Below are positions 3,001 through 64,000 of a stretch of DNA of 64,000 nt, piece after piece (positions within the stretch are counted from its first letter, which is position 1; the number at the start of each line of letters is the position of its first letter). The notes under the pieces are model-generated. The model was not told the DNA's origin. It did no database searches and saw only the letters and a program-made list of their open reading frames with translations. Both the position numbers and the translations under genes were made by a program. Source of the DNA: Protoeuglena noctilucae (lineage: Eukaryota); the NCBI GenBank assembly GCA_958009085.1, contig OY253668.1, positions 744,001 to 808,000 of the forward strand, written 5' to 3'.

Positions 3001-4240
3001 GACCTCAACCTCTTCCTCCACCAGCAGCCGCACCGCCTCCCGCTCCAGAGCCTCCGCGACCTCGTCTTGCTCCCTCTCCAGCTCTGCCTCGGGGCTCGCT
3101 GCGCCCAAAGCGCCTCCGTCGCCCCCCGCACCAGCCACATCCTCCCCAGCTGCGCCGTCATCCGCAACTGCGCGGTCCTCAACGGCGGCACTCGATGCCA
3201 GGTTCACGCCCGGGAGGCCCATGTCATCAATCAGCACCGGGCCCATGGGCAGAGGGTCGGGGTGGAGGAAGGCGCCACAGAGCACGAGGGGCTGCTTGCC
3301 CGTGTTGCGGATGGCGATGCGTCGCACCCGCACTTGGCTCGCACGGAACGCAGCGTCCCATGCGCCGCCTTGCGCGTCTTTGCCGTCGCTGGCGCTGCCT
3401 ACGACAGTGCCCATGTCGCAGACGGGCGGGCCCATGTCCAGGCCCAGGGGAGACGCGGCCTGGGTCCCGGGGGCGGTGCCCCACAGCGCGGCCGTCATGC
3501 GTGCGGCGAGGGAGCCGTCCGCCAGGGCGGCTGTGAAGGCCGCCGGAGCCGAGCAGGCAAGACCCTGGGGGCAATCCGCTGGGTCGGGGGTCGCATGCAC
3601 GCGCTGCGGGGTCAGCCCGGCCGAGGCGGGGTCCGCGGTCGTGATGGCGATTTCTGCTGCCAGTTGCTGCGGCGACAGGGGTGGGGGGGCGCGTGAGTGG
3701 CAGATGCGCGAGCAGCGCGGCGCTGTGACGCGACCGGCCGCACGGGCCCAGCTTGCTCGCCTCCATCACGGCACCCTGGCGGGTGTCTAGAGCCGGGAAC
3801 ACGTCGATGATCATGCCCTCCTCTGCGATGACGAGCCCTCCGAGCTCGCCAAGCTCCTCCCCATCAAAGTACGCCTCCTTTAGCAGCATGACTGCTCGGC
3901 AGAGGACCGCGTGCGCCTCGTCCTCGGCCAGCGCGATGCCTCGTCGTACCGATGCGACGGTCACTTGAGCGGGGGCCCGACCCCGACGCAGCAATCGCGA
4001 GGGCCAGGTCTCGGGCATCATACACGCGAGCGCGAGGGCCTCGGCGCCCACGCAGGCCATCAGTCCGCCGAGCGCGGGGTACAGCTCATTCACATGGTTC
4101 TGCGACGAGAAGAGCGACGGAGATTTTGCCAGGGGAGAGCCAGCGGCTGCACTGGGGACGAGCTCCAGCGATGCACGCTCACGATCAGCGCAGAGCTCAG
4201 CGTTGGCACTGCCGGCCGCAACGCGGCAGGCGGAGCCCAT
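1..4240 (-). CDS. SDE3/MOV10/Armitage-like UPF1-family (SF1) RNA helicase; multi-exon, 3' end runs off the window start
   Basis: Minus-strand exons give LNDEQRAAV...LFGPPGTGKTLTLVE (Walker A), RILLAATAENYSAD, HVLVDEAGQA, LAGDPKQLGPVVRS, LLRNYRS, SFFNAAEV and VGVLAPY at the window edge. Start codon approximate. Confidence 0.85.
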
Positions 4241-12310: not shown

Positions 12311-14481
12311 TTACATGAACTTCAGCCAGCGCATGTAGGCGACGGAGCCGAAGAAAAAGAGCACGGCCCCGAGCGAGCAGATGATAGTGACCAGTAAGAA
12401 GTCACGGCTGCTGTCTTCCCTTTTGCTCGTCAGGTTCATGCCGAAGATGGACGCTACGGCCGTGACGAGCGCCACGCCGAACGCCCCGCTTGTCAAGAAG
12501 AACTCCAGGATCTGTGAGGACCAGCGGCACTGGCTTTACGGCATGGAATGATCGCATAGCACAACAAGACGGCTGCCTGCTCCAACAGCGCCCTCCGCTG
12601 CACCCTGCGCTGCATCGGCACCCACCAGGAGCTTGTTGCGCTGGCTGTCCTGCTTGATGTTGACGAAGTCCTCCGTGTCGTCGATATACTCTGCCAAAGT
12701 CGTCAGCTTGTTGTACATCACGTCGACCTGCGGCAGAGGCAGCGGGTCGCAGTGCACCCACCGGTTCGCTTTTGCGTCGGCAATGCCACAGGGTGAGCGC
12801 TGGCCCTCGTCACCGGCATGAAGTAGGCCTCCAGGAGCATCTCCACCTCGTCCACGATGCCCTCCTCCACCTCGCTCTCGATCGAGCTCTTGCTGCGCGT
12901 GCTCTCGGACCGCGCATCCCCGGCAGGCAGGGGCAGCACTTGCGGGCTGGCGCCGAGCTGCACCGGCACCCCCATGGCCACATCCCCTGCGGAGCCAGAC
13001 GAGCTCAGAGGCATGTCGTTAAACAGCGGTAGCTTGGCGAGGCGTTCAGCAGGCAGGGCAGCTCCTGACGCCGCATGTCACCTCCCACGTCCGGGGCGGT
13101 CTGCGAGGGCTGCGACTCGTCCGACCGCGCCTGCTCCTCGAGCATCTCGTGCACGCGCTCGTCGATCACGGCCTTGCTCGACAGGTACATGTCGAGCATG
13201 TCGTCGTCGTCGTTCAGGTACCGCTCCAGGACCTCTTTCACGTCCTCCACCCGCCCCTGCAGACACACACGACGGGAACGACGCGCTCAAGGCAGGGATC
13301 TCGATGACGAGGCTGCTCAAAGTCGATGCTCGGGCAACAGCGCACCTTGAGACGCTTCATCCGGCTCTTGATGCGCCGCACGCGCTCCAGGTTGACGATC
13401 GTGACACGCTGCGACAGGGCGTCCAGCGCTGGGTGTGCCGAGGCCTCCAAGTCGGCCATCTGCCCCTCCAGGTGCTTCACGACCGCCTCCAGCGCCACCT
13501 CCAGACACCGCAGCTCAAACGGCACCCTGTCCTGCGAGGCTCGACATGCACGGCGCCGTCTTGCTCGCATGCTGCCGCTGCACGTGCAAGCGCTGCGAGT
13601 GCATCTGTTGCAACGACGCCCGACGCTCACCTTGGTCGTCCTGCCCGACTTGGCCATCCGATGCGCCTTCCCCAGGCGGACCTCGAGCTCCTCCACAAGC
13701 GCCGCCACGCCCTCGTCGTGGAAGTCGAGCACGAACACTTCGTCGAGGCCGATGATGCACTTGACGTGCTCGAGGTTGACGACCATGGCGCGCTGGCGGC
13801 ACAGGATGGCGCTGGCGAAGGCGCTGGGGGTGTGGGGCTCGAGCGCCCGGAGGTCCCGCAGCGGCACGGCCATGCGGCGCGAGGCCGCCAGCTTGTTCAT
13901 CTGGACCATCACCGAGTTGCCCTCCCGATCGATGCGGAGCCACGTGCGCACCCCGCCCTGATTGCGAACGTGCGCGTCCAGCTGCGGACGCACGAGGCGG
14001 GAACAATTCGTTCAGTGTCACCAGAGACAAGCGCCAGGCGGCCCAACGCGCCGAAGACGTCGCGTGTGCTCGCACCTTGGGGCGATGCTTCCGGGCCAAT
14101 TCGCCGTTGTCGCGGTGCCGCACGGGTGCAGCCACAGCCACGGCCACCACGTCCGGCGCCGACTCGACTTTGCGCGGGCTTCCCACCGCCCTGCGAGCCA
14201 CTCGTTGGCGGGTGGGCACCTCAGCATTGGCAAGTCCAAGCAGCACAGGGGTTGAGCAACACAGTGGGCGATGTGCGCGTGGCGGCTGCCCCTCACCCTT
14301 GCAGGAGGACGTCGGTGGTCGAGACCTCAGGCACCTCCCTCTCCGGGTGCGCCTCGCCCGTCTCTTCTAAGACCTCCGCCGCATGGCCCTCGAGCGGCGC
14401 CTCCAGGTACCGCTCCATCGGCGTGAGGTGGACCCACTCATCGGACGGGGCTCCCGGCCCCGAATGCTCGGTGCCAGACAT
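12311..14481 (-). CDS. MRS2: MRS2/CorA-family Mg2+ transporter, copy 2 (tandem paralog)
   Basis: Same motifs and similar intron positions as copy 1; SIFGMNL; N-terminal TP(M/L)ERY motif shared with copy 1 supports the ATG at 14481. Confidence 0.92.
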
Positions 14482-15705: not shown

Positions 15706-17043
15706 TCACAGGGTGTCGTCCCCGATGGGCAGCTCCTGCAGGACCTTCTGCGCCACCTGCTGCTGCCCGATGTTGATGAAGAACTGCACAAGCCACTTGC
15801 GGGGCGCGATGTCCTTGTCCTCCCGCAGGCAGTCGAGGATCTCGGGTGTCAGGAAGGCCTGGATCGGGAGCGGCGCCCCCGACGTCTGGTCCATGAAGAG
15901 CTTGCGGGCCAGCTCGCTGTCGGACAGGCGGAGGTAGCATCGGATGATGTGCTTGAGGAGGCGGGGCGAGGGGGACTCGCGCAGGCCCATGACCACCATG
16001 CCCAGCACGTGCGCGATGAAGTGGATGCGCCCCGCCGTCTCGCACACGTGCGCCAGCCCCGCGTCGTCAAGGAGGATCTTCTGGATGATGAACGTCGCCA
16101 CCGTCTTGGACAGCTCCGTCCCGTACTCCATCGTGCAGAAGCACAGCGGGATGATGTCCGTGCTCAGGAGGAACTTGATCACCTGCGACGCAGCGAGCCA
16201 CAGGGACCGTACTCTTCGTCGCGACTGGTCCTGTTGCGCCACGCTGCCCCCCCCCCCCCCCCCCCCGCGCCCGCGGGGTTGCCAACGCGCAACGCGCCAG
16301 GTAGATACCAGGACGAACGATTCGAACCCCGCCGGCCTCGGGCTCACCTCCGAGTCGTCCACTTTAACCAGCGCCCCAATGACCCCCAGGGACGTGAGGC
16401 GGAGGTACTCGTAAGGCCGGCCCTTCTCCCGCGTGTTGAGGAACGGGTAGAGGAATATGGGGACCTGGGCCTTGAGGAACAGGTTCCGCGTCTCCATGTG
16501 CGAGGCCACGCACTGCAGGAGCGCCAGCGCGTTGCAGACGCGGTTGGAGCACGGGTGCGTCAGCACGGCTGGAGGCGTCAGTTTCGGGTACACGGAGACG
16601 ATCTCGAGCAGCAGCGCCGAGATCGTCCCGAAGCTGTGCCACAGGTAGACGGCCAAGTCTGCGGAGGCCGAGGGAGGGCGAAACTCGCGCCGGCGGCCTG
16701 GCCACGGACTCCCGCGCCGGGTCCTGATGGATCCTCTGTAGAAGAGCGCGGAACGCGTCGAGAGTCACCGGGGAACTGCTCCCGCTTCTTGGACAGCTCC
16801 AGGAGCGCGGTCTCGCGCATCGCTGGGTTATTCAAATCGACCACGAGCTGCTCGATGTTCGCGGCGTTGGCCATCGCGCCTCTGCGGATGAGACGGAGGT
16901 CAGCGCGATGACCGGCAGGAAAATCGCCGGCTCGCCCGCCCCCCAGGCCGCACTTTCGACCGGGGCTCCATCACGCACCTGGACTCGGCCTGCATCCCTC
17001 CTCCGGACCCGGGCGGCCGTTGTTGTGCATTCAGGTTATTCAT
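15706..17043 (-). CDS. CNOT9: CCR4-NOT subunit CNOT9/RCD1/CAF40
   Basis: [83 protein letters not shown] short first exon from ATG 17043 splices in frame. Confidence 0.95.
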
Positions 17044-27947: not shown

Positions 27948-30900
27948 TTACTTGCGACCCCTGGGACTGAGGCGCTCGCTGTCCGCGTCACTCAGCTCAA
28001 CAGCCTCGAACTCCGCATGGTCCCAACGCTCTCCCGGACGGGATACAGGGTTGACGCCATCGACCCCGCTGCCCGCTCTGTGGGCCTTCTTGCCCACCAC
28101 AGGCATCCTCACAGTGCTAACCGCCTTGGGGGCTTTGGCACCCGCGGGCCCACGGCTCTCTCTGCCTGGGAGTAAGGCAAGACGATTGAGAGCGCGTCGC
28201 GTTCAAATCGATGCTCCTGAACTGTAGACACATATATCAAGGGTCATGAGCAAGCCAGAACCAACACGTGGAGGGTGCTGCGTGTTACTGAAGTAGCACT
28301 TCGGTAACTGGATAGGAACGTCTCTGTAACTCCCTCACGAACCCTTGTCACGAGAGGGCCCCGCCGCTCCCATTCCCATTCTTCCGCAGGCGAGGGGGCA
28401 GGACGGCCACCGAGCACCGCGCCACACCTGGGCCTGCATGCGCGTGCCCCTCCGTGCCAGACGAACCGTACGTCAGGTGCGTGTGGGGCGCCTGGTGGTG
28501 CGGGTGATCGCGGTGCTCCTGGGCGTGGCGCGGGCCCGCGTCGTAACCCCGAGGCCCATGCCACGATCCCCCGCCCGGGGACCGCCGCGCCCCCTCCGCC
28601 AGCTCCTCCACCACAGGACCCGCGACCCGGGCGTCCACTGCCCTGGCGCACTCCCGGTCTCGATGGTACGTGAGGTGCAGGAGCGAGTAGAAGACGAGGC
28701 ACAGGGCCCACGGCACCTCCAGGCACACCAGCAGGGCATTGCCGAGGGCCTCGGCGTTGTGGCGGAGGTGAGCGGTGGGCGTCAGCGACCCCATCTCAGC
28801 CAGCGTGCCGTCAAAGGAGAAGATGCCCTGCGCCAGGAGACCTACGACAGGGGCGGCGCTGGGGGGGCGGGGCGGGGACGAAAATGCGATGGGTGGAGCA
28901 GTCTTAACTTGCGGCGCAAAAAAATGGTCGAGTCCTTGCGGGCAGGCCACCCCTAACTGAGCCTGCGCAGCTCACTCGAGACATCCTGCTAGCAAACTCT
29001 CTCACCCCACCCCAGGCCCTTGTGTTGTCAGCTCACCTGGCAGCAATGGCTCCCTCGAAGGACCGGTCAAAAGCGTAGATGGTCGACCGCATGTGCTCCG
29101 GCACGATCTCGGCGAACATGGGGCTGTTGCAGGCGGGCGCCGCCCAGCTGATGCAGAGCCCGAAGACGAAGAGGACCGAGCCGTAAAGGAACCCCACGCC
29201 CGAGGCACTCACGTCGTCACGGGGGAGGCCCTTGAGGACGAGCGCGGAGAGGGGCAGCCCCGCGGCGACGCTGATCTGCGCGGCCAGCGTGCGGCCGTGG
29301 TTCGGGGACCATCGGGCCAAGTGGTCCCCCACAAAGCCACCCAGGAGGCCACCCAGGGCGGCACCGGTGGCAAAGACCGCCATGAGGACTGCCGCCGTCA
29401 GGTCGCTGAACCCGAGGAGCTGGAGCCAGAGGGTGAAGAAGACCATGGCGTTCCATGGAGTGCTGCCCACGATGCCTTGCAGCACGATGACCTGCGGGGT
29501 GACGACCGTGTGCATATGGGTGGCGTGCCTGTGTGGGGCGACCCATGGGGATGGCTGCACGCGCAGCACGGAGTGTGGGATGGCAAGAGGCATAGCTTCG
29601 TTCTCTCGCAGCTGCCGCGGACACCACTGGCAGCCCCACATTGCCTTGCAGCACAGCACGAATTGCCCCCATTGAGAATGACCTGGAAGGTGCGGATGCG
29701 CAGGATCCACATCACATCCGCCCACGTGACCCTCTGCTTCGTTTTGGGCACCAGCGCGCCCTCCCCCAGCAGCTGCCTGTCCCCTGAGCCCCGCCCCCGG
29801 CGCCCCCCCGGTCCGCCCCTCCCGCACTGCCTGACGGAGACAGCAGCCTCTCCTCGTCACTCTGCGATCTCAACAAGCAGGCTCGCCATCAGCAAGGCAA
29901 GCGCACTTGTGTGACCACCGTGTGCTGATCAACAACGCCGCCTGCGCCCTCACGTGGCCCCCTTCGCCATCACCGCCTTTGGCCCTCGCCGGAGCCCCGC
30001 CCTCGGCCTTGCCTCCTCGCCCGCCCTTCGACGCACGCGCCGCCCCCTCGCCCTCCTCTGCTCGCCCCTCCCCCGCACTCGCCAAGTCCGGGTCTTGTGT
30101 AGGGACGGGCCTGCAAAGAGCGATCACGAGTCTCAGCTTCTTACAAGCACATGTCGCGCTCAATGCAGCACACATATGATGCTCAGGGAAGCACATGGCG
30201 CGTGAAAAGGCCCCCCAGGTGTCACCGGAAGCGCGGCATGAAGAGGCACTTGTAGCGCTCCAGCTCCCCCGGGTATCGAAGGTCGGCTCCGAAGAAAAGG
30301 ACGCAGACGCCCGTCACAAGAGACACGAGACCGACCTGCAGGCACAGCCACAAGGCATGCGCTAGTTGTGATGGCTCGTGGGTGCAGTGGAGAAAGACTG
30401 CTCCAGCTCTCTGCACCCAGGCCCTCACCATGCTGCGCCACGCGCCAGCCCTCCCACTTGTTGCCGGGGATCGGAAGCCACGGCGACCCGAAGAACAAAC
30501 CCCCTATGTTTGTACCCTGCATCACCCAACGGAGAGAGCGGCTTCGGGGTGCAGCGGGTCGTCTTGAACCGACACCCCCCTGCCCGTCATCGCTGCTTGC
30601 CGCACTCACGTAGAAGCCCCCCAACATGCCCCCGACGGCCCCAGTGAGGTACATCCACCCAAAGGCCTTGCCCCGCCCCCCAGGGTAGTAGTCGGCCAGC
30701 AGGGACTGGCTCGACGGGATGACCGCGGCCAGACCCAAGCCCTGCCAGCAAACGCATCGATAAAGGGGTTGGCTTGCCCCTGGTCGCCCCGCCGTTCGGC
30801 CGCGCGCGCCAACACCCTCGCCCAGCAAGTGCCGAGCAGCGCAGGGCTCGCGCGCGCGGGCGTGACTTTGCCGGGCGAGCGGTATCGTCGACATCATGAG

Positions 30901-31512
30901 AAGCGACTCACGTTCAGCGCCCAGCAGACCAGCGCCTGCTTGTAGCCCCGCCGGCCGGGGGAAATCGCCGCGATGCCGCAGGTGATGGCGCCCCACCACA
31001 GGCACCCGACGCCCACGATGGTCTTCCGGTTCATGAAGTCTCCGAGCATGCCGGACAGCGGCGAGGACAGGGCCTGAACCAAGGCCCGGCAGAGGACGAG
31101 CATGCCGAGGTCCGAGGGGCGCGCGGCGAGCGTCCGCCCGATGAACGCGTACACGGAAGGCAGCACCTGCGCGGGCCTCCGACACGTCTCTCGCGGGGAT
31201 AACGAGCCACGACATGCCCGCGCGCTCGGCCGGCGAGCCCCTCCGGGCGCGGGGGGGGAGAAGTCACACGTCGCGGGGCGAGTCCGGGCCCGTCGAACGG
31301 CAGCGAGCCGTGCGCCGAGCTAGTCTCCGAGAAATCGCATAAGTAAAGGCCGAGGACGCAGTCTTGGGGAGTCTGGCTCGCAGGAGCGACCAATTCGGGC
31401 GCGCACCGATCCCCACCTGCTCATCCGCCCTCTCCATGACGCTTGCGGCATTCACGAGCACCGTTGTTGCCAGACGGGCGCGGTCGCGCGCCTGGTCGTC
31501 TACGCTCGCCAT
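27948..31512 (-). CDS. Major facilitator superfamily transporter (plant Spinster-like type)
   Basis: VNAASVMERADEQ|VLPSVY, QSLLADYYPGGRGKAFG, VIVLQGIVGSTPW, PACNSPMFAEIVP...IYAFDRSFEG, NAEALGNAL. Last exon 28166-27948 joins in phase 1. Confidence 0.88.
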
Positions 31513-31713
31513 CGCCACGCTTCCTCCCCCTCCCGCGCATTCACGAGACCGTTTGCGAGCCAAGGACTGACGGAGTCGAGCGACTGGAACGAAAAGAGGG
31601 ATGCTTTGCACGCCACTAGCGAGCTGCCGTGCAGGATTGCGCAAAAAACGTGGCAGTCAGAAAACAGCGTGCACGCCAGTTCTGCCCTTGCAGCACACGC
31701 CTCCTCAGATTCA

Positions 31714-32685
31714 CATCTGGGCCACGAGGACCGCTGTTGTGTGAGCCGCGGTGACGTGGCCCACCTCGAGCGGGACCTGAACTCGCTTGTGGTTCCTCGT
31801 TGCTGAGAGGGAGAAAGCGACCTTGGCGCGAAAGTGAAAAGCCTCAGTAGCGACGTGAGGGCCCTCCACGGCGGGGTCAGAGGAATTCACGGGACGAGTG
31901 AGGGAGAGCTTGAGGCCGCCGGTCGGGGCATAGGCAGCGCACTCGCGTGGGAAGGTGTAGGCCACCCGGACGCCGTCAGCAGGGAGGGAAGTCCCGGAGG
32001 GAAAAGAGAAGTAGCCCTTTAACTTGAGGACCCCAGGCTGGACGTACGGCGGGGGTCGAAGGACGAGGTCGGACGCCTGGATGGTGGGCACAAGGGGCTG
32101 CAGAGCATTCGCGATGGCCAGGCGAAGCCCCCGCTGGATGGCGGAGGGGAGAACATTGGTGGATCGCCCCCCGGTCTTGATGAGGATCTCGAACACGAAG
32201 TCTTGGATGTGGTAATCGAGGTCAGGAAGTTCAGCGTCGACGTCATCTGGGAGGACCTTGTCAAGCGCCGCGAACACATCGTCGAAGTTGCGGACAGGAG
32301 TCTGGAAGGGGTCTTCAGTCTCGCCATTTGGGGAGTCCATCCGAGCATCCTGAGCTTGGTTTGCTGTACCATCCCGCCTGGAGCGTTTCAGATTGGGCGA
32401 CGCAGGCGTCCTAGAGCCCTCAGCGGCCGTTTCATGGGCGTCTGCAGAGTAAAGGAAGCTGCTGGTAGGCAGATGTTGGCGTCGGGTCCACCCGCCGTAC
32501 CGGGAGGTCTGCTTAACAACAGGGCGGGAGGGGAGACTCGGCAGCGCTGGGCGTGTTAGGTCTGTACCTTTCTGCGGTTTATTTCCAGGAGTGGAGGCGT
32601 CGGTCATAGTCGCGGCAATGCACAAGTGGTCCGTGGGCTGCAAGAGCGTGAGATTGCGTTGGCATGTAAGGGGATCAGACGCCAT
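31714..32685 (-). pseudogene. LINE ORF1, N-terminal half, lying in the inverted segment
   Basis: Intronless >320-codon ORF with the same C-rich composition as the element's sense strand; ends ...VLVAQM exactly at the element boundary, with its TGA supplied by flanking DNA. Confidence 0.65.
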
Positions 32686-32807
32686 TGTAGGGGGCCGCAG
32701 AGGCCCGGAGAAGGGCACAGAGGCCACGATGTTTTTGAAAAGCGCAACGAGGCGCGGAGTAGTCGAAAGGCGGGGCCCCGGGGTGTCCCCGGGGGTGGGG
32801 AGGGGTA

Positions 32808-32992
32808 CGCGCACGCGAGCCCTCCCCCCCGCCGCCAGGCCGGACGGCATCACCACACTCTAACCGAGCATGGTGACGGCCCGCCGGCCTGGTCGGGTCG
32901 CCGCGTGCGCGGGGCGGAGGAGCTCACCTACCACACCTACTGTGCATGCACTGGGGGAGATAGGGTTGGTCTTCGCAAGTTTCCTTGCGAAG
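32808..32992 (-). other. Predicted structured RNA in the LINE 5'UTR (long stem-loop, possible pseudoknot, GAAA-capped hairpin)
   Basis: Inverted repeats 32835-32843/32884-32892, 32808-32817/32902-32911, 32817-32831/32910-32925 (imperfect) and perfect CTTCGCAAG-GAAA-CTTGCGAAG at 32971-32992. Confidence 0.5.
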
Positions 32993-33008
32993 TTTTTCGA
33001 AGTGAATT

Positions 33009-34006
33009 ATGCTCTTTTCCTCCTGGAACCAGGTGGTTCAGTTTGCCACTGGCCTCTCCGCTATAGCTCCCTCCGCTGTCTCCACTGAAGCCGTGCGCGC
33101 CCTTCTCACTACGCTGGGGATGCCGACCGCACTGGTCACTGTCCTCTACACTCTGTGTCCCGACGGGCCTGACCGGGTAGGCTGCGACGTTGCCATCAAG
33201 TGGCTCAACAGCATTCGCAAGAGTGTGGTAGACACCATGACCCACCCCCGGGCGACTAATGCCTCTTTCGTTTGCTTCGGCCCCTCCCTCCACTTCTCGG
33301 CAGATATCCTGAACCCCGGGGCTTTTTCCAGACGTGGCTCCGCTGCCTCATCCCCCCTCCCTCCCTGGACACGTTTACCAACCACCTGGTGCTCGTGCAG
33401 AGTGAGGGCCGCCAGGGCCGGGATTCCTTCTTGGCCGAAGTTTACACCGCTACCTCTTGCAACGGACACGGGGCCATGCGCCAAGCCCACTTGCCCGCCT
33501 TCTGCCCCTCCGGCTGCATCACAGCCCTCACTGCATCTCTGGCAAAGCCCTACGTCGTTTCCACCTTGCTTAGTGAACGCCAGACCCTTCGCTCGCTGTG
33601 CCGCCCCTACACTGGTAGCTTCGTGGCTGGGTGCTTCTCCTGCGACCTGTGCCTCGCCAAAAACGCTGCGGCTGCCACCGCTCACCAGGCTGGCCTGGAC
33701 TACGCTGCCACCCTGGACCTGCAAGCCAAAGATAACATCGCCAAGCTTTTCTCGCTAACTACTGGCGCTGCCTCTGACCCCCTGTCTGGCACCGTCAAAG
33801 GCCTGGCCATCGATGCCCGCAAGGTCCTTTTCTGCCCCAAAGCGTCCAAACCGCCCCCCTCTCTCCTTCTGGGCCTCTCGGGTGTTGCTAGTCACCTCCA
33901 CGACCACCACAGTGACCAGTGTGACAAGAACAAAGCGATCACCCTCAAGCAGTACACTAGGGGCTCTGTTTCCCTGTCCAACCTCATGCAAGTTTGGTTC
34001 CCGTGA
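33009..34006 (+). pseudogene. LINE ORF1, C-terminal half (one frameshift near 33320), Cys/His-rich
   Basis: MLFSSWNQVVQF...; after the shift, CNGH, CFSCDLC and CPK...HLHDHHSDQC; TGA at 34004-34006 overlaps the next ATG. Confidence 0.6.
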
Positions 34007-37000
34007 TGGTGACAACGCGTAATGCAGCAAAGCGCTTGCGCCTCCTACCCACCTCCCCAGTTGAAAACCACACCCCCCATGGGGGATCGGGTCCCCACTC
34101 AGGTCCCCCCCTGACATTGAGCCCCACAAATGGGCACAGGAATGGACCACCACCTAGGGCTGCAGCGCCCACGCGATCTTCCTTTGTCAGCTGCACCCCT
34201 CAACAGGGCACTTGTCCCCATTCCCCTCCACTCACCCGGCCTGGCCAACCTCACTGCCCTCACTCTCAACCTCAATGGTAACTTCCTCATGAAACAGGAG
34301 GCGCTGCTTGGCCTTATCCAGGCGCACCCCCACACATGGCTGGCTCCCCCCGCTTCCTTTGTCTTCCTCCAAGAGCTCAAAACTGAGCTGGATTAGCCCC
34401 CCGCCGCCTTTGCGTCCCTCGCGCGCCTCAGCCACCACGTGTGGCGCATGGGGCCCTCAGCCCATCGGGCTGGGGTGGCCATCCTCGTTTGCAACCAGCC
34501 TGGCTCCCACCTTCTCCACACCTGGACCGAACCTGACACTGCTCGCCTCACTGGCTTCGTGGCCCGCCTCGATGTCAAAGTAGCCAGCCGCCACTACACC
34601 CTCGTCAACGTGTACATGCCCCAAGACGCTGCTGACAAAGACTACGTCCTCTCCAGCCTCCTCCCTGACGGCCTCGCATCCCACGAACTCGGCCTGGTCC
34701 TCATGGGTGGGGACTGGAACATGGTCCTCGCAGCAGACATGGCTGCCTCGTCCTCGAACCACCAGGCCACCTCTGAGGTGCAGACGACCTTGCGAAAGAA
34801 GCTGCAAGCCCAAATCGAGGTTCTGGGCCTCATTGATGCCGGGGAGCAGGACCACAACAAGCCATTTGCAGTCCCCACGCGCCGGCACATGGCCCATGAC
34901 AAGTCGTGGAAGAACCGACTCGACCGTCTCTACGTTCCTCGGGACCAGCCCGCTGCCCTCCGCACGGAACACTCTGATGCCACCGCTCGCATCCACGCTG
35001 CCAACATTGCCCTCTCTGACCATGCCCCTGTTTACTTTCCTGCGCGACACCCCCCGCACCTCTCTCCGGCACCCCGCCAACATCCACCCGCACACGTCCT
35101 TCCTCGTGGAGGAGATTCGCCAGATGGTCGAGCCCCTGCAGGAAGCAGCTGTGTCCTCTGCCATCCTGGCCCATCCCGGGCCCGCCGCTCCCCCCAGCAC
35201 CGCCAAGCGCTGGGTCCAGCAGACAGCCAATGGCATCCAGGAGATCTCTCGACACTGGTATGCACACCAGTCCCAGTACATCAACCAGCGGAAGCAGCAG
35301 CTCCGGCTTCTGCGGGAGCAGTACTTTACAGCCGTGCGTGACGGCGAAGACGCCACTGCGTTCTGGTCCCAAATCCTCGATTACTACCAACATGCCCTAG
35401 CTAACCTCGACCGGCAGAACAAGACCCGGTCCTTTGATGTGCCGGCCTCAGCTCTCCCCCATGCCCTTCAGCCTGCCAGAGATAAGCCCTCCCCGCCAGC
35501 CACCAGCGTCAGAGATGGTGACGGCCAGCTCCTCTCCGAACCTGCTCTGGTCGAGGAGACCCTTGTGGACCACTTTAAGACGGTGGGGCAACCCACATCC
35601 CGCGATCCAGCTGCCCAGCAGCACGTGCTGGAGGTCCTCCAGAACTCTGGGCGCACGCTCACTGACCAGGAGCAGCAGAGCATTGATGCAACCATCACCG
35701 CGGAAGAGGTCCTTGCGGCCATCCACTCCTTCAAGCCTGAAAGCGCCACGGTGCCCATGGGCCTGCTGCCTGGCCTGTACCAGCGCTATGCCCACCTATA
35801 CGCCCCACTCCTCACTCTCCTTCTCAACACCATCCAGCAGACGGGTTTTATGCCCGCCTGCTTCCTTAACAGCACTGTCACTCTCATTCCTAAGCTCCCC
35901 AAAGCCACGGACTGCAAGCCCTCGGACTTCCGGCCCATCTCAGTCAATGATGCGGTCTACCGCGTCCTCGCTAAGGTGCTCAACACCCGGCTGCGCCCCG
36001 TCCTCCAACGCATCATCCCCCTCAGCCAGCAGGCCTTCATCAAGGGCCGATGCATCTCACGATGCGTGTACCTCACCCGCGCCACCCTGGAACTCTTCGA
36101 CCAGTCGGACGAGGGGTGCTTCATTATCTTCAATGACTTTGCCAATGCCTATGACACAGTCGACCGGCCCTTCCTCAGACGCATCCTCGAGACCTTGCGC
36201 TTTGGGGGAAACGTTCTGCACCTGGTTTGACATCATGCACACCCCCTCAGCCACCTACCAGCTCAAGCTGGGTCACGGTCTCAGCCGTGGTTACAGTGTC
36301 TCCACGGGCGTCCGCCAGGGCTGCCCGCTCGCCCCCTCCCTTTTCATCCTTGTGGCGCTCGCGCTCCACGAGCTGGTCGCCTCCAACCCCGACATCAAGG
36401 GCCTCCCGGTACCGGGACCCAACAAGCCCCCCCTCTACGCTTTCCGCACCGATAAACGGCTGGCCCAGGAGAGCCTCATCAGCCAATTTGCAGACGACAC
36501 CGAGTTCGTGCAGGCCACAGTGCAATCCATGCACAACTTATTCCAGGCTTTGGAAACCTTTCACCAGGCAACTGGTCTGCGCTCCAACCCCGCCAAGACG
36601 GGCATCCTTCCAGCTGGAAAGTGGAACACGGATCCAGCAGCGCTCCACCTGCACCTCACTGCTGCCCAGGCCCAGGGCCTCGACACGCTAATCTATGACC
36701 ATGCCCAGCAACGCTGGAAGCTCGATGGCTACTGGATTACCCCGCCTGGGGGAGAACCAGTAGCGCCAGTGAAATACCTGGGCACGCTCATGGGACCCAC
36801 AGGGATCGTCCCGACCGACTACTCATCCTTCGTGGCAAGCATCTATACACAACTCCTTCGCCTCCGGCAAACGATATCCCTCTGCTTCATCGGTGGAAAA
36901 CTGTCAAAACGTTTGTGCTGTCACGCCTCATCTACGCGACCACGCACTGCCCCATGGATTTTTCGCCAGGGAAGCCTGGTGCCCCGCTCCTTCGCTACAT

Positions 37001-38792
37001 CCAGCGCTACGTGCTCACGGAATCCCCCAAAACGCAACGGCTCCCGCCTGAGATTGACAGGAACGAGCTGTACCACCCCGTCAGCCGGGGCGGCCTTCAG
37101 GCTCAGCATGTGCCCTTTCACCAAGCGGCCCTCCGCTTCAAGATGATCCAGCTCCATGCGTCGGGGGCGGACCCCCTTTTCTCCAATGCCATCCACCAGC
37201 ACCTCGTCAGGTCCCTCAAGTATAAAGCGACGGTCAAATATGACGGACTGCGCTATGAGACGACGTTGTCCATCCCGGTGGGGCCCCACATCTGTGCTCT
37301 GACAGCCAAAGACTGGGCGGAGCTCACGCCCACCCCCCTCATTCGTGACCTTTTCAGCGCCACCTCGATGTTCCCCGCCACCCAGATGCTTCCTCCACCA
37401 CAGCCATACGCCAACCCACCCACCCTGAATGACCTGTGGATCCACCTGACCCCAATGCTCCGACCCCCGCTTCTCTTCAACCCACAAAACCCTCTCTCCT
37501 TCCCCGCCAACTTCGTGCACAGCCGCTCTACTGACCTTATCCACCAACGACTCCTCCTTGATCTGGGCCGCCATCATCCCAATCCTCGAACCTCTCCAGC
37601 GGGCCTTCCCGCTGGTCTCGTCGCTCATCATCCCTCGTGCCCACAATGGCCGTCTGGGACTCAAAGACCCTGACGACGTACTGACGACCCTCATGGTCCT
37701 GCCCTGGGCTCCTATATGGCCAGGCAGATTCGACTTGACTTCGTTTCTGCCCTCTCCGCCCACCTCAACATCAACAGCCCTGGCCGCCCTGGGCTCCCCG
37801 CCAACGCCTGGAATGACATCCGTGGTCCCACAGTCCTGTCTGTCTTCCCTCACGATTTCATCCACCGCATCTCTGGGTTCAGGGCCCAGGGCTGGTCCCA
37901 ATACTTCTCCATGCATGGCCACTCGCTTGGCCCCACGTACCACCCCCTGGCATCCATCACCCCCCAAGCCCATCACAGGGCCTTCGTGGTCGCAAAATAC
38001 TCGACGGACCAACCCTGCCAGCGTTTGTTGGAGGACAGCTCTCCCCATCTGGCACGTGCTGCGACTGCTGCCTTGGCACGCCCTCAGGCTAACCCCGCTC
38101 ACCTGGCCGCCGCCTCCACGGCCTGGCTCGCTGTCACCGACCGGTTGCCTACCTATTCTGACCTCCAGGGCAAGCCCTGCCCCCTCTGTCTCGAACTCCA
38201 CGGCACGTCCCTCCATGACCTGGCGGAGTCATGCCGCACGGCCCAGGTCGTGTGGCGCTCCGTCTTCCAATCCCTGCCTCCCCTGTCCTGGCAGAACCTG
38301 CGCCGCTGCCTTACCCAGCCACCCGTGGGGCCATCCGGCCTCTGCCCTGACCGTGGCACCCCCACTGCGTTCCTCTACCGCTTTGGCGCCACCCATGCCA
38401 GCTCCTCCCTGCTCAGGTCCCCCGCTTGGCGTCTCCTGTGGTCTGAAACTCTCCATGCCATCATCACCGCGCGCCGCTACTGGCGCACAGGCCATCCCCT
38501 CCCAGGTGCACCCCCCATGCTGCTCCTTGACCCTCCCGACGCCCCAGCGTGGGCACGGGCAGCTCGCATCGTCTCCTACGCCGGCCATAGGATCTCTTCT
38601 GCCCTGGCTTCCCACCACCGCCTCGCCTCCCCGGTTTCGGCCTCTCTGCTCCCAGACCTCCACGACCCTTCCCTCCCCCGCGGGGTCTTCTTCAAGGCCA
38701 TCTCTGTCACTCAAGACCTCTTCTCTTCTTTCTCACCTCTGCCTCCCCCGCAGCCGCCACCCCATCGCCGTGTTCCATTTGAGCCGGGATAG
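34006..38792 (+). pseudogene. LINE ORF2: apurinic-type endonuclease + reverse transcriptase + C-terminal Zn knuckle, disrupted
   Basis: EN: TLNLNG, FLQELK, GVAIL, LVNVYMP, GGDWN, RLDRLY, SDHAPV. RT: FRPISV, QQAFIKGR, DFANAYDTVD, GVRQGCPLAPSLF, QFADD, KYLG. CPLC-x8-H-x5-C. Broken by an in-frame TAG (34394) and several frameshifts. Confidence 0.92.
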
Positions 38793-38999
38793 GGGGGCTA
38801 GGGGGGGTTGTTTTGTTTTCCGAGTTTGCTAGCTTGGCGGCTACTACTGACCTTTGCGTCACCACTTCTTCCTGTCCACCTCTATCTCCTTGAGCTTTCT
38901 TGCAGGTAGGGTTTTTGAGGGTTCCCTCCCGGTCTATATCTTTGAATCCTCACTGGCAAAAAAAAAACACATTGCGGCCTACGCGACACTACTTGTGTC

Positions 39000-40771
39000 T
39001 CAGTTCAGGGGCGATATGCCCGGCCCACCCATCCCCCGCAGCTGCGCGAGTGCCGTGGAGCCCTGGGCTGTCCGCTGCACCATGGCATCGACGTTGCGCT
39101 GGATGGTCGCCCCGGTGCTCTCCAGGGGCAGAATCCCGAAAGGCTCCTCGATCTGAGGCGCAACCAGGAGCACAGGTTTGCGTGGGCCCAGGGAGGGCGC
39201 TGCGCGGACCGCTCGCCCAGCCAAATGCAGCCTCACCTGCAGCCCAATCTCGTCGATCCCAATCAAAGAGAAGGAGATGATGCCCATGGCCGGCACCACC
39301 TCCCACCCCAGCGTCTTGTACAGCCTGCAAGCCGTGCGGCGTGCATGCGGTGGCTGGCTCCCGGCCATGAGGGGCCATCCGGCACTCCGCGGCGTCCTAG
39401 CACTCACCCGAGGGGCAGCAGCGCCAGCCATATGGTCATGAAGCGGCTGATGTGGTGCGAGTAGAATAAAGGGACCGGGGTGCGCAGGATGCGCTCGCAG
39501 CCCCCAATCTGGTCGGCGAAGCTCGTCAGGTTGGCGTCGATCGCCAGCTTGATCTGCGGGTCCAGACGCGATTCGCTGACGATCTCCGAGATGGCCTCGA
39601 GGAGGAAGTTGAACGGGTGGTCCGACGCGGCGACGACGGCCGCCTCGCGCTTGGAAAGGCCGGCGCCGACGAGGAGGTCGGCCAGGTCGTCGCTGGGCAT
39701 GCCCCGCAGCTGCGCCATGGCGGCCCGCGGGAGGGCCTTGACGAGCCGCGCGCACTCGAGCGCCCTCTCCGTCCCACCCTCGTGCCGGGGCATGTAGGTC
39801 ACGCACTGACGGACGAGGTCGCGGCACCGGTTGACCATCAGTCCCCAGTACTGCGGCCAGGGCGGGCTGCTGCGCTGGACCAGGCACGCGGTGCGATGCA
39901 TGCGGCAGTGACACCCCCCCGTTTCCCGCGTCACCTTGCGTGCCTGGTCGAAGCGCTCGTACCCCGAGTTTGTGCGGAAGACCAGGAGCAGGGACAGCGC
40001 GAAGCCAGAGAGAGAAAAAGGGACGGAAGACAGGTCCGGCACGACGGCGGGGATGGTGCCGGCGCGCTGCAGGGTGTCGAAGCACATGACGAGCGCGCCG
40101 TCCGCGCAGTAGAAGAGGCAGAGGGGCAGGCAGGCGCGCACGATGCCCGACATGGGCAGGCTCTTGAGGTGGCGCACGTATCGCCACGTGGAGCGGTGGC
40201 GGGCCCAGTCCTCCAGGGTGAAGACCGTGCGGCGGTAGGGCCGTGAGTCGTCGTCCCGCAGCGTGTCCCGGTTGTGACGAGGCACCTCCGCCTCGTCCTC
40301 CACGCTGGACGTCACGGGCATGTCGTCGAACGCCCCGGGCACGTCAAAGTCGCTGCCGAGGTCGCTCATCTCCCTACCCGCAGGGACGTCGGGGTCGTAG
40401 TCGTCGTGCGCGCTGGCATGAGCGGTCACGCGTCCCGTATGATTGCCCATAACCATTCAAGAAAGGTCAAAAAAGCCATGCCGGGCGCAATACGTGGCAA
40501 GGCTCGCTCCGTGCCGGAGGCCAGGTGATAACTGTTCCATGCACATAACCACCTGCGAAACCCACGAATTGCGTCCCTTTTTCGCCGTCCTGCATTCCAT
40601 CGCCGATCTTTCACGTGTCAACGTGCATCTACTCGGCCTGGGTGGACGGGAGAAAGCGCGAAACGCCGCTGCGCCCCGCAGAGGCGGTGGCAACATGCGC
40701 CCGCATGACATGCTGGGCGGGTCCCCGCCCGATGAGCCACTGCCAGTTCTCTTTGAAGAACTGTGAAACAT
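39000..40771 (-). CDS. Bestrophin-like anion channel (UPF0187/VCCN/BST type)
   Basis: RPYRRTVFTLEDWARHRS..RY, ALSLLLVFRTNSGYERF, GGCERILRTPVP, GIDEIGLQ|IEEPFGILPLE. N-terminal exon approximate. Confidence 0.92.
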
Positions 40772-47175: not shown

Positions 47176-47670
47176 GGGGGCTGTGAGGAGGTAGACGCTG
47201 TGCATGCGATGTCCCAGACACCCGCGTCAGTTCGCTGTAGTCCTAGGCCCCCTTTACGTCAGGCACGCACGAGCGTCACCTTTTTTGCCCCGATTTGACA
47301 GCTGCTGACGGCCAGTGCCCTCCCATGATTTCCCATCAACAGTGCCTAGCACCTGCTTTCGCTGGTGCGACTCACGATTGCGCGTGTCCGCCCGTTTGCC
47401 TAAGCATTGATCTGGGCGTCTCGGTCCGAGTTCAAAGCACGACGCCCAAGCGCAGCCAAAACTGGGCGCACTGCCACCAGTCCGCCCCTCGCAGGGCTCG
47501 GCTGCTGCTGCTCACGGCCGTGCCGGAATCGCCACGAAAATCAGGGAGTAGAAAAAAGCCGGGAAACCTGGGGCGGCGCTGCTGTCCCCGCGCCAGGCCC
47601 CCGTCCGCGTAACGGTCGCAAGAGGCGGCCCGCGCGCGCCACCCGACGCGCCGCCAGCCGCGTGGGGTCC

Positions 47671-49409
47671 TCACATGGACGCCGGGTTCTGCACGATCAT
47701 CTGCAGCGTGGAGATCAGGAGGACGATGACCCACGCGGCCATGGCGATCCGGCCGTTCCACAGCTCGGCGTTCTTCGTCCAGCCCCACTCCCACAGCGAC
47801 CCCTCCGGGATGGGCAGCGGCAGGTTGTCGGCGTCGTAGGTCGCCAGGAGCGAGTCGATGTCGCCCATGGGCACCAGGCCCTTGCCCTGCCCGCTGGCCA
47901 CCGTGCCCACATACGGCAGCGCCTCCACCACCGCCTCGGCCAGGTCCTGGATGAAGACCGAGTTGGTGTTGAGCGCCGGCACGCGGCCCCACTCCTTGAT
48001 CCCAGACTCGAGGGCCAGTTCCCTGCGGGCGCGGCGGGCCGGCGACGCTGCGCTCACACCCCCGCTCCCGCCGCCTCGCAAAGCACCTGCCCAGACAACG
48101 CCCGCCCGCCCGCCCTCGCCTGTACTCCATGTCGATCTCCTCGAGCGTCTCGATGTGCTCCGACACGAACGAGATGGGCACCGCGAGGAGCGCCGGGCAG
48201 CCCTCCTTGCCCAGCCGCTCAATGGCGTCCTCCGTGTAGGGCTGCAGCCACTCGACGGGGCCCACGCGCGACTGGTAGGCGAGCGTGAAGGGGTTCTCCA
48301 CGCCCCGTCGGCGCAGCTCGGCCACGATCAGCGACACGCACTCCTCCATCTCTTCCTTGTACGGGTCGCCCGCCTCGTCCACGTAACTCTTGGGCACGCC
48401 GTGCGCCGAGAAGAAGAGGTGGACGGCCGAGGCGTCGGAGAACTTGGAGTTCAGGTCGTCTTGGATGAGGTCGGCCATGGCGCGGACGTAGCCGGGGCGC
48501 TGGTACCAGGACGGGATGACGGTGTGCTTGAGCTCCCGCAGGGAGGGGTCGTCGCGCATGAGCTGCTCCAGCAGGCGCAGGGACGACCCGGACGTGCTGA
48601 TGCTGAACTGCGGGTACAGCGGCAGCACCACGAGCCGCGTGACGCCGTCCCGCTTGATGTCCGCGACCGCCTCCTCCGTGAAAGGGTTCCAGTACCGCAT
48701 GGCCACGTACACCTTGGCGTCCACGCCCAGGCGCCGCAAAGCGCCCTCGAGGGCACGGGCCTGCTCGTCCGTGATCTTGCGCAGGGGAGAACCGCCGCCG
48801 ATGGACCGGTAGGCCTCCGTGCTCTGGGGAGAGGCAACGAGGACGGGTACTGTCACGGTCGCCCCGCCGCGCAGCAACCCGCGTCGCGCGCGCCGCGCCG
48901 ACTGCCCAGTCTGCGGCCAACGCGCACCTTAGGCGCCCGGGCCAAGGAGATGGCGGTGGCGATGGGCTTCTGCAGCCCCTGGAGGGCGGCCGGCAGGCGG
49001 ATGATGTCGGGGTCGGCAAAGAGGTTGTAAAGGAACGGCTGGACGTCGTCGAGCTTCTCGGGCCCTCCCAGGTTAAGCAATAGCACGCCGACCTTCTGTC
49101 CCTGGGCGCCAGCGGCGATCTTCCGCAGCACGGCGCTGTGGTCGGTGGTGTCGGCCACAGCACGCATGGGCGCGGCGAGACCGGCCGCGCGGCTCCTCCC
49201 CACGTACCCCACGCGGGGCAGCTCCCAACACATGAACGGCTCGGGCCTGCGTGGGCTGGCGGGACTCGGGATCGGCTGCGCGGGGCCCCTCGCAGGCCAT
49301 GCAAGCCCGAGCAACGCGTCAGCCCCGCGCGGGCGCCCCTCGCGAGGGCTGTGCAAGAGATTTGCGGCAGCGCGGACGTCGTGGAAGAGAAGGAGCGGGG
49401 CGACGGCAT
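47671..49409 (-). CDS. hemH: Plastid ferrochelatase with C-terminal CAB/LHC-like motif (FC2 type)
   Basis: [90 protein letters not shown]. 5' exon structure unresolved. Confidence 0.95.
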
Positions 49410-62394: not shown

Positions 62395-64000
62395 ATGCGC
62401 GAGATCGTCCACATCCAGGGTGGCCAGTGCGGCAACCAGATCGGTGCCAAGTTCTGGGAGGTGAGTTTTGCTGCGCGTAGCGTGGGCTTCCGGGGCCCGG
62501 GGAGCGGCGCCCCGGCCTGGGCGGCCCGCTCCCGACGTTCCCAGGCGAACCTGGCCCTTCTCCCTGCTGTCGCGCGCTTCTTGTGCGTCTTTCTCTGCGG
62601 GAGAGCAGCCGGCGCGCGCCCCGGGCGGCCCGGTCGGCCGCGCGGGCCCCTGGGACATGCCGTGCCTCCCCAGCGCGCCGTGCGCGCCGCTGCTCGCCCG
62701 GTCCGGGGAACGCCCGCCCTCCCGCGTCTTTTCTTCTGAGAAGAACCGTCGGAGGGCCATGTATTTTGAATCGGGCGCTGGGGTTGCGCGGGGGCGACTG
62801 CCCAGGCACCGGGCCGTTGCGCGGGCGCCCCGGCCGGGCCTGGCCCTTTCGACGCTGCGCTGCCGCTCCCTCTGTCCCTTTATTTCCGCACGGTGCCGCT
62901 GCGGTGGCCAGGTGCTCGGCATAGCCGGGTGGCTACCGGTGTTATTTTCGTCGCCGACCCGGGGATCCCCCCCGCGCCACCGCCTGCCGCGGTCCGGCTG
63001 CCGTATCGCGGTCTTTCATGCGTGAAGTTTTCACGCTTGAGCCCGGCGGCTTCCTCTTTGCTGCCGTCGCGTTGCTTGGGAGGCCAAAGCACCACCCTGC
63101 ATGCCCCGTGGCGGGCCTCCGAGACCGGTTCCCGACGCCCCGCTGCCCTCCTTCCGTCCAGGTGATCTGCGACGAGCACGGCATCGACCCCACGGGCACC
63201 TACCACGGCGACTCGGATCTGCAGCTCGAGCGCATCAATGTCTACTTCAACGAGGCCTCGGGCGGCCGCTACGTGCCCCGCGCCATTTTGATGGACCTCG
63301 AGCCCGGTACCATGGTGAGAGGCGCTCGCGGGACGGAGGCGCGTTCGGCGCGGGGACCCCGCCGCGGCGATGCATGCGGTGCCACATGTCGCGCCCGCCC
63401 CCCTGTGCAGGACTCGGTCCGCTCGGGCCCCTACGGCCAGATCTTCCGCCCCGATAACTTCGTCTTCGGTCAGACGGGCGCGGGCAACAACTGGGCCAAG
63501 GGCCACTACACGGAGGGCGCCGAGCTGATCGACTCGGTGCTGGACGTGGTGCGCAAGGAGGCCGAGTCCTGCGACTGCCTCCAGGGCTTCCAGGTCTGCC
63601 ACTCGCTCGGCGGCGGCACGGGCTCCGGCATGGGCACGCTGCTCATCTCCAAGATCCGCGAGGAGTACCCCGACCGCATGATGTGCACCTTCTCGGTGGT
63701 GCCGTCGCCCAAGGTGTCCGACACGGTGGTGGAGCCCTACAACGCCACGCTGTCCGTGCACCAGCTGGTCGAGAACGCCGACGAGTGCATGGTGCTCGAT
63801 AACGAGGCCCTGTACGACATCTGCTTCCGCACCCTCAAGCTCACCACGCCCACGTTCGGCGACCTCAACCACCTCATCTCCGCCGTCATGTCGGGCATCA
63901 CGTGCTGCCTGCGCTTCCCCGGTCAGCTCAACGCCGACCTCCGCAAGCTCGCCGTGAACCTCATCCCCTTCCCCCGTCTCCACTTCTTCATGGTGGGCTT
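62395..64000 (+). CDS. TUBB: Beta-tubulin (3' part beyond the window)
   Basis: [31 protein letters not shown]..., [47 protein letters not shown]. Confidence 0.99.

Follow-up and report, generated by a model that had tools for sequence, protein, structure and literature searches.

The stretch of DNA described here, a window of 64,000 nucleotides from contig OY253668.1, contains at 31717–38967 a decayed long interspersed nuclear element (LINE) of 7.25 kb, which carries an endonuclease and a reverse transcriptase (RT) and resides in an algal nuclear genome. Its 5′-most 1.3 kb, comprising the 5′ untranslated region (5′UTR) and an open reading frame (ORF) of 323 codons, is found on the minus strand, inverted relative to the body of the element. 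This arrangement probably reflects one insertion of an L1-like retrotransposon of the kind lacking long terminal repeats (non-LTR), in which the 5′ 1.3 kb was reversed during insertion by twin priming; we infer that the inversion arose at insertion and not later. As described in the passages cited here from PMC12016303 and PMC2837659, twin priming places a non-inverted, poly(A)-primed cDNA and an inverted, internally primed cDNA together within target-site duplications (TSDs), with a gap or an overlap between the two.

Element ends, ORF1 pieces and the inverted block

The coordinates of the element and of the neighbouring host genes are collected in Table 1. The composite as a whole is bracketed by two copies of CACAT, a putative TSD of 5 bp, and the sense-oriented 3′ segment terminates in poly(A) at its 3′ edge. 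On the plus strand of the window this motif is found 50 times, on average every 1280 nt or so; its recurrence precisely at the end of the minus-strand ORF and behind the A-run is unlikely to be a matter of chance, though five nucleotides make a short sequence. The last three nucleotides of the left copy (CAT) are complementary to ATG, the last codon of the minus-strand ORF, which provides a possible microhomology at the outer edge of the inverted block. Since other copies of the family part from the window at 38965/38967, where loose contig ends are seen in sequencing runs X1, X5 and X6, the 3′ end of the element is fixed. The flanks of these other copies are represented by short loose ends, whose agreement is low (0.58–0.65). 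The GC skew is +0.19 over 31717–33008, −0.23 to −0.28 over 33009–38957, and close to zero in both flanks. A six-base inverted match, noted by eye, is found at the borders of the inverted block (ATTCAC at 31709–31714 and GTGAAT at 33002–33007). In sense orientation the element begins with AATTCAC..., which is similar to the GATTCAC of the target, located partly just 5′ of the duplication and partly inside it; this likeness could represent microhomology at the 5′ end, or chance. A BLAST comparison of the window with itself gave no further copy of the element, and no Rfam RNA family was found in 30500–40000.

Table 1. Features of the LINE and host genes in the window. Positions are counted from the first letter of the window.
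Feature	Position	Strand	Basis
Left putative TSD copy, CACAT	31712–31716	+	Sequence
Putative ORF1, N-terminal part (inverted relative to the body)	31717–32685	−	323 codons, ATG 32685 to CAG 31717
Element 5′UTR (inverted)	32686–33008	−	32675 to about 32990–33035 common to a second genomic copy
Putative ORF1, C-terminal part	33009–34006	+	Coding phase; single-copy depth; contigs with 0 differences over 32820–34267
Apurinic-type endonuclease domain of ORF2	34229–35023	+	Frame 2; Pfam Exo_endo_phos, E = 5e-5
RT domain of ORF2	35898–36612	+	Pfam RVT_1 in two pieces (2.1e-11, 1e-7)
Possible C-terminal Cys/His zinc-binding motif of L1-type ORF2	38109–38255	+	Pfam zf-RVT, E = 0.42
A10 tail, 3′ end of the element	38958–38967	+	Sequence; point where other family copies part from the window
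Right putative TSD copy, CACAT	38968–38972	+	Sequence, immediately 3′ of A10
AAA_11/AAA_12 helicase	2–3765		
MRS2-like Mg transporter	13241–14011		
Rcd1/CNOT9	15709–16764		
MFS transporter	30163–31263	−	
Bestrophin-like gene	39407–40456	−	
Plastid-type ferrochelatase	47435–48928		
Beta-tubulin	62925–63998		

The minus-strand reading frame opens at 32859, contains a further possible start codon (ATG) at 32850, and continues through ...GTG GCC CAG ATG to 31714, where a TGA follows directly (31713–31711). The reading frame extends through the final base of the element, with the stop codon supplied by the TSD and flank. On the plus strand, the second piece begins with ATG CTC TTT TCC at 33009, and an in-frame TGA is found just 5′ of it (33003–33005). 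According to a codon-phase scan, the coding-phase signal continues up to both break points, and the two pieces join in frame. From 33009 only frame 0 is open (249 codons) while the other two frames stop early, and an in-frame join would therefore be obtained by chance in about one case out of three. Further on, the plus-strand piece passes from frame 0 to frame 2 near 33230–33320, corresponding to one frameshift, and ends with TGA at 34004–34006. All of the landmarks on which a first-pass annotation of the window had relied, i.e., the two ORF termini, the CACAT pair with its A10, the reversal of skew near 33000, the complementarity of CAT to the internal AUG and the in-frame join, were recovered on the window. 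As for the ORF1 of about 650 residues that it proposed, the two pieces do join in frame, but the literal fusion amounts to 323 + 249 = 572 codons, and about 650 is reached only when the frameshift near 33230–33320 is bridged.

Codon composition sets the element apart from its surroundings. All ORF pieces of the element, the inverted one among them, have a GC content at third codon positions (GC3) of 0.70–0.75 and a C content at these positions (C3) of 0.45–0.53, compared with a GC3 of 0.83–0.92 in host ORFs. For the two ORF1 pieces GC3 is 0.70–0.74, with the same excess of C over G on the sense strand as in the element, and the N-terminal part on the minus strand (GC3 0.70) is like the element and unlike the host genes. 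It is thus supported by codon composition and coding phase that both pieces belong with the element and not with the host genes. The ORF1 stop codon overlaps an ATG at 34006 (TGATG, 34004–34008), which opens a short ORF in frame 1 toward the endonuclease. Here ORF1 and ORF2 may be linked by overlapping stop and start codons, but 33950–34130 is without clear coding phase. In the public gene calls, the inverted ORF1 fragment appears as a stand-alone protein of 367 residues (P0001, window 31714–32814), which is probably an annotation artefact of the inversion.

Neither ORF1 piece matches a Pfam family at E ≤ 5, and no recognisable RRM, zinc-knuckle, Transposase_22 or esterase domain was found in them. 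Among 1.84 billion representative proteins, ORF1 has no relatives beyond the window's own and one spurious repeat protein, the bacterial P0002 (1423 residues, tandemly repetitive, no meaningful Pfam match), which aligned over three stretches with E = 1.7e-7 and was rejected. A protein search in the "longer" mode, which is weak evidence, gave no relatives of the N-terminal part, and none for the endonuclease query either. Comparison of the C-terminal part with the Atlas gave no usable match, with a pLDDT of 0.33 for the structure model. Co-folding of the two pieces, run without controls, gave a score of 0.01 and is informative neither way. A 26-base stretch of the 5′UTR had 0 matches among metagenome contigs in a search that missed the window's own locus too.

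The normal orientation of the 5′ region, and the state of the junctions, can be judged from public sequencing data. Eight of the 14 listed runs, from two studies, one of which may be the source of the assembly, contain the stretch, and Logan contigs of four of these, X1 and X3 (both metagenome) as well as X5 and X6 (both organism A), were aligned to the window at a likeness of at least 80%. X1, X5 and X6 each contain one contig in which 32675 on one strand is connected to 34229 on the other, the shorter arm being 39 letters long. Depth arithmetic, in which 44 nt of bin 32402–32718 are assumed to be covered, indicates that this contig covers 32675 upward, and the predicted bin means of 10.6, 258.6 and 89.4 equal the observed values in all three runs. 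It accounts for 252–344 nt of bin 32719–33035 and for 0, 0 and 20 nt of the next bin, that is, for at most 20 nt past 33036. Because the two pieces are on opposite strands, the other piece must be 34229–34267 (39 nt). As judged from contig placement and depth, a second genomic copy is therefore present in which the 5′UTR and 11 nt after ATG 32685 continue straight into the beginning of the endonuclease, all on one strand.

Since the 5′UTR and the endonuclease are collinear in this second copy, the family layout is normally collinear, and it is the 5′ block of the window that is inverted. The claim of an inverted 5′ piece made in the first-pass annotation is thereby supported by three of the four runs. 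It follows that the minus-strand ORF, whose N-terminal part is contiguous with the 5′UTR common to both copies, is a sense ORF turned round and not an antisense gene; the annotation had further described it as half of ORF1, which is a putative assignment. The similarity of the second copy to the window stops close to 33008, and the true 5′ end of the element and its RNA is accordingly located at this position or close to it. The second copy is without the whole 2.2 kb between 32674 and 34229, where ORF1 is located in the window. We read this as a deletion. Splicing, which was considered as its origin, is unlikely and was rejected, as the borders of the lost stretch are not GT...AG (in sense, TC... 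to ...TC). The depth of the second-copy contig corresponds to a single copy in X1 and X6, and to about half of that in X5 (117 vs 242–302), so that samples of the organism may differ in copy number or zygosity.

When the count is limited to listed contigs that extend 31 letters or more to either side, contigs cross the left edge in three of the four runs (X1, X5 and X6), the inversion point in all four, and the right edge again in three (X1, X3 and X6), in each case at single-copy depth and with 0 differences. Both 30500–32700 and 33036–33986 are at single-copy depth in all four runs, and both ORF1 pieces are therefore unique. Toward the 3′ end the summed depth relative to the flank increases, from about 1.7–5.6× over the RT bins to about 9–12× at 38425–38741; these are rough values and not copy numbers.

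Twin priming as the probable origin, and alternatives

The geometry of the insertion fits twin priming, with a putative TSD, an A-tail, a possible CAT/AUG microhomology of 3 nt and an ORF cut at the outer edge. According to this mechanism, the endonuclease would make the first nick in the bottom strand at ...ATGTG^AATC..., and reverse transcription would start on the poly(A) tail, the first cDNA copying the RNA back to the ATG codon now at 33009. The top strand would be cut 5 nt away, and its 3′ end (...CACAT-3′) may then pair through CAT with the same internal AUG, from where a second cDNA would run to the 5′ end of the RNA; this order of nicks is presumed. Joining of the cDNAs would produce the series TSD, reversed 5′UTR and first 323 ORF1 codons, the rest of ORF1 with ORF2, 3′UTR and A10, and TSD. 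With its ORF1 split, such a copy would have been dead on arrival, and would have decayed since. In the source RNA the two ORF pieces would be contiguous, presumably in exact adjacency, and the RNA is predicted to read ...GTGGCCCAG then ATGCTCTTTTCC... (or a near neighbour) across the join, i.e., ...GTGGCCCAGATGCTCTTTTCC..., while the empty site before insertion is expected to be ...CAGATTCACATTGCGGCC..., with the duplicated bases placed as ...CAGATT-CACAT-TGCGGCC....

Several observations weigh against this explanation. No collinear copy across ...GCCCAGATGCTCTTTTCC... was found in the contigs of the four runs (at a likeness of at least 80%) or in the protein databases. A source element with intact ORF1, which twin priming requires, is likewise absent from the reads of these runs. 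Both 31768–32401 and 33036–33986 are single-copy in all four, and the adjacency ...GCCCAG/ATGCTC... is for this reason a presumption. A gap or an overlap in multiples of three would keep the frame equally well, and the complementarity between the CAT of the TSD and ATG 33009 is meaningful only if the two segments are adjacent. With the sole other 5′UTR-bearing copy lacking it, ORF1 is perhaps not a standard component of the family. An empty allele was not seen either, in that no joint in the four runs skips 31717–38972, although contigs can miss rare alleles. The TSD has just 5 bp and the microhomology just 3 nt, and the nick site TG^AA is not T-rich and would pair poorly with poly(A). Finally, in the passages of PMC4245944 cited here, 5′ inversions in cell culture arose almost exclusively when human L1 was assayed in human cells, none were obtained with a LINE that makes 5-bp TSDs, and the authors consider that an overhang of about 5 nt is possibly too short for priming.

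An inversion after insertion would yield a product identical to that of twin priming. In this alternative, a collinear full-length copy was inserted first, and its initial 1.3 kb was flipped later by breakage and end-joining or by recombination between very short inverted matches. The copy is old and heavily mutated, leaving time for such a rearrangement, and the six-base inverted match is found at both borders. However, inversion between these matches would introduce 7 additional nt where the ORF pieces meet, and the frame would be lost some 25 codons later. Moreover, no inverted repeat of at least 14 nt is found at 31714/33008, and one of the breakpoints would have to fall by chance exactly at the boundary between element and TSD. 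We regard a later inversion as improbable. That the inverted block is a misjoin of the assembly is far less credible still, and such an artefact is hardly worth considering as an explanation. Although run X1 may itself be the source of the assembly, independent contigs from the runs of two studies cover 30500–32849 and 32820–34267 with 0 differences; in X5, these contigs overlap by 30 nt and cross the left edge as well as the inversion point at single-copy depth. Since short-read contigs assembled independently in two studies cross each of the three junctions, misassembly is very unlikely.

A different objection concerns the identity of the ORF pieces, which may not be the halves of one ORF1. 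The 2.2 kb that they occupy (31717–32674 and 33009–34228) would then not be a regular part of the family, and could have been captured or rearranged together with a 5′UTR fragment, or could represent a divergent two-gene layout specific to this locus, with the in-frame join and the CACAT pair as coincidences. Consistent with such a possibility, both pieces are single-copy, they have neither relatives among the 1.84 billion representatives or in the Atlas nor a Pfam family, and the gene caller presented the minus-strand ORF as a protein in its own right (P0001). Furthermore, the only other copy with a 5′UTR passes from 11 nt after the ATG straight to the endonuclease. On the other hand, the minus-strand ORF starts at the family's own 5′UTR and ATG, which the second copy also has as far as 32675, both pieces resemble the element and not the host in codon composition and strand skew, and both ORFs are cut exactly at the segment ends, where they join in a single open frame. 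Based on these features, we think it doubtful that the pieces are unrelated to a single ORF1, and twin priming of an RNA with an uninterrupted ORF1 is the explanation that we prefer.

ORF2 decay and genomic surroundings

In ORF2, the endonuclease is located N-terminal to the RT. The Exo_endo_phos match amounts to 23.6 bits, just below the cut-off of 24.5, and its first position, 34229, is also the position where the second copy joins its 5′UTR. The RT domain passes from frame 0 to frame 1 at a frameshift near 36204, and searches with it gave three proteins from ENA assemblies that are 90–93% identical (P0003–P0005). One of these paralogues, P0004 (545 residues, uninterrupted), matches RVT_1 with 3e-23 and maps onto the window in frames 3, 1 and 3. 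The sole distant relative is a JGI protein (P0006) with 31% identity and the motifs ...SDFRPISL...QQAFIKGRCI.... At 11.7 bits, the zf-RVT match is far under its cut-off and serves as a lead only. ORF2 has an in-frame TAG at 34394–34396, and at least five changes of frame were located by the codon-phase scan, near 34940, 36190, 36800, 37490 and 37660. The designation of the LINE as apparently full-length in the first-pass annotation is thus true of its extent only, since the copy is decayed. Based on the order of its domains, we would tentatively class the element as an L1-like LINE.

The window is nuclear DNA of a eukaryote, with genes for beta-tubulin, Rcd1/CNOT9, ferrochelatase, a bestrophin-like protein, and MRS2-like and MFS transporters, and the LINE lies between the MFS gene and the bestrophin-like gene, both of which are on the minus strand. 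Among ferrochelatases, the model in the window most resembles those of plastids and cyanobacteria, and the best PDB match of the beta-tubulin is entry 6u42, which we take to be from Chlamydomonas. These hints agree with the green-algal host assumed in the first-pass annotation, and a green alga is plausible to that extent. The locus (window 31400–34400) is near-complete, with 0.98–0.99 of the sampled words, in marine metagenome runs of 2016, and likewise in runs of 2023–2025 that bear the label of a single organism. It follows that marine samples contain this organism or were enriched in it.

Comparison with known retrotransposons

The pattern of 5′ inversion is rarely documented outside mammals. 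In the literature searched, no paper pairs "twin priming" with "algae". For "twin priming" together with "plant", none of the papers listed reports a plant case in its title or abstract, and in PMC6007223 the term was seen only in the reference list. Judged by titles, the twin-priming papers listed look mammalian-centred or methodological. Whether the present element removes twin priming from the peculiarities of mammalian L1 is, in our opinion, evenly balanced. If it does, an algal L1-like LINE would have used the mechanism with a 5-bp TSD, priming over 3 nt and a cDNA extending to the 5′ end of the RNA, and with an ORF1 of about 650 residues that has no relatives among 1.8 billion proteins and was lost from, or never present in, the sole other 5′-complete copy. 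This would conflict with the proposal that priming needs overhangs longer than about 5 nt and, in a clean case, second-strand priming on RNA would be an old and general property of such reverse transcriptases. A single decayed copy is an anecdote and not a rate. The calling of the inverted half as a separate gene of 367 residues (P0001) also advises caution in annotation.

Among the L1-clade LINEs of plants and green algae, to which Zepp of Chlorella belongs, the same order of an apurinic-type endonuclease followed by an RT is found, together with poly(A) and, as a weak feature in the present element, a zf-RVT-like Cys/His motif. Unlike in these elements, the ORF1 described here is without a known domain type or relatives. 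The second genomic copy can be compared with the spliced integrated retrotransposed elements of human L1, which are internally deleted, spliced LINE copies. It has the 5′UTR and 11 nt of ORF1 and resumes at the endonuclease, but its missing stretch is TC...TC instead of GT...AG. The 5′UTR of human L1 carries an antisense ORF, ORF0, which resembles the minus-strand ORF in that it is found at the 5′ end of a LINE and opposite to the strand of ORF2; the minus-strand ORF, however, runs in the sense of the family's own 5′UTR.

The closest counterpart is provided by the twin-primed L1 insertions of human and mouse, where the process was reportedly described by Ostertag and Kazazian in 2001. The differences are that the host here is an alga and that the element is not a mammalian L1. 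According to the cited part of PMC12016303, 5′ inversions are present in 18–22% of human insertions, and the cited part of PMC4245944 indicates that they appear to depend on both LINE and host and need long target overhangs. The TSD has 5 bp, compared with a peak near 15 bp in inverted human L1 (PMC4245944, as cited), and the inverted cDNA apparently extends all the way to the RNA 5′ end, in contrast to the truncation of most human cases. In addition, the join may be exact, while human cases usually have a gap or an overlap (median overlap 12 bp in the cited part of PMC12016303). What the present insertion shares with those of human and mouse L1 are TSDs around a sense poly(A) segment and an inverted 5′ segment of the same element; microhomology to the target at the outer edge, and segments that meet at or near the same element coordinate, are presumed to be shared as well. 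We therefore view it as one new and modestly surprising case of a known process, in a host that is new to it, and not as a new kind of system.

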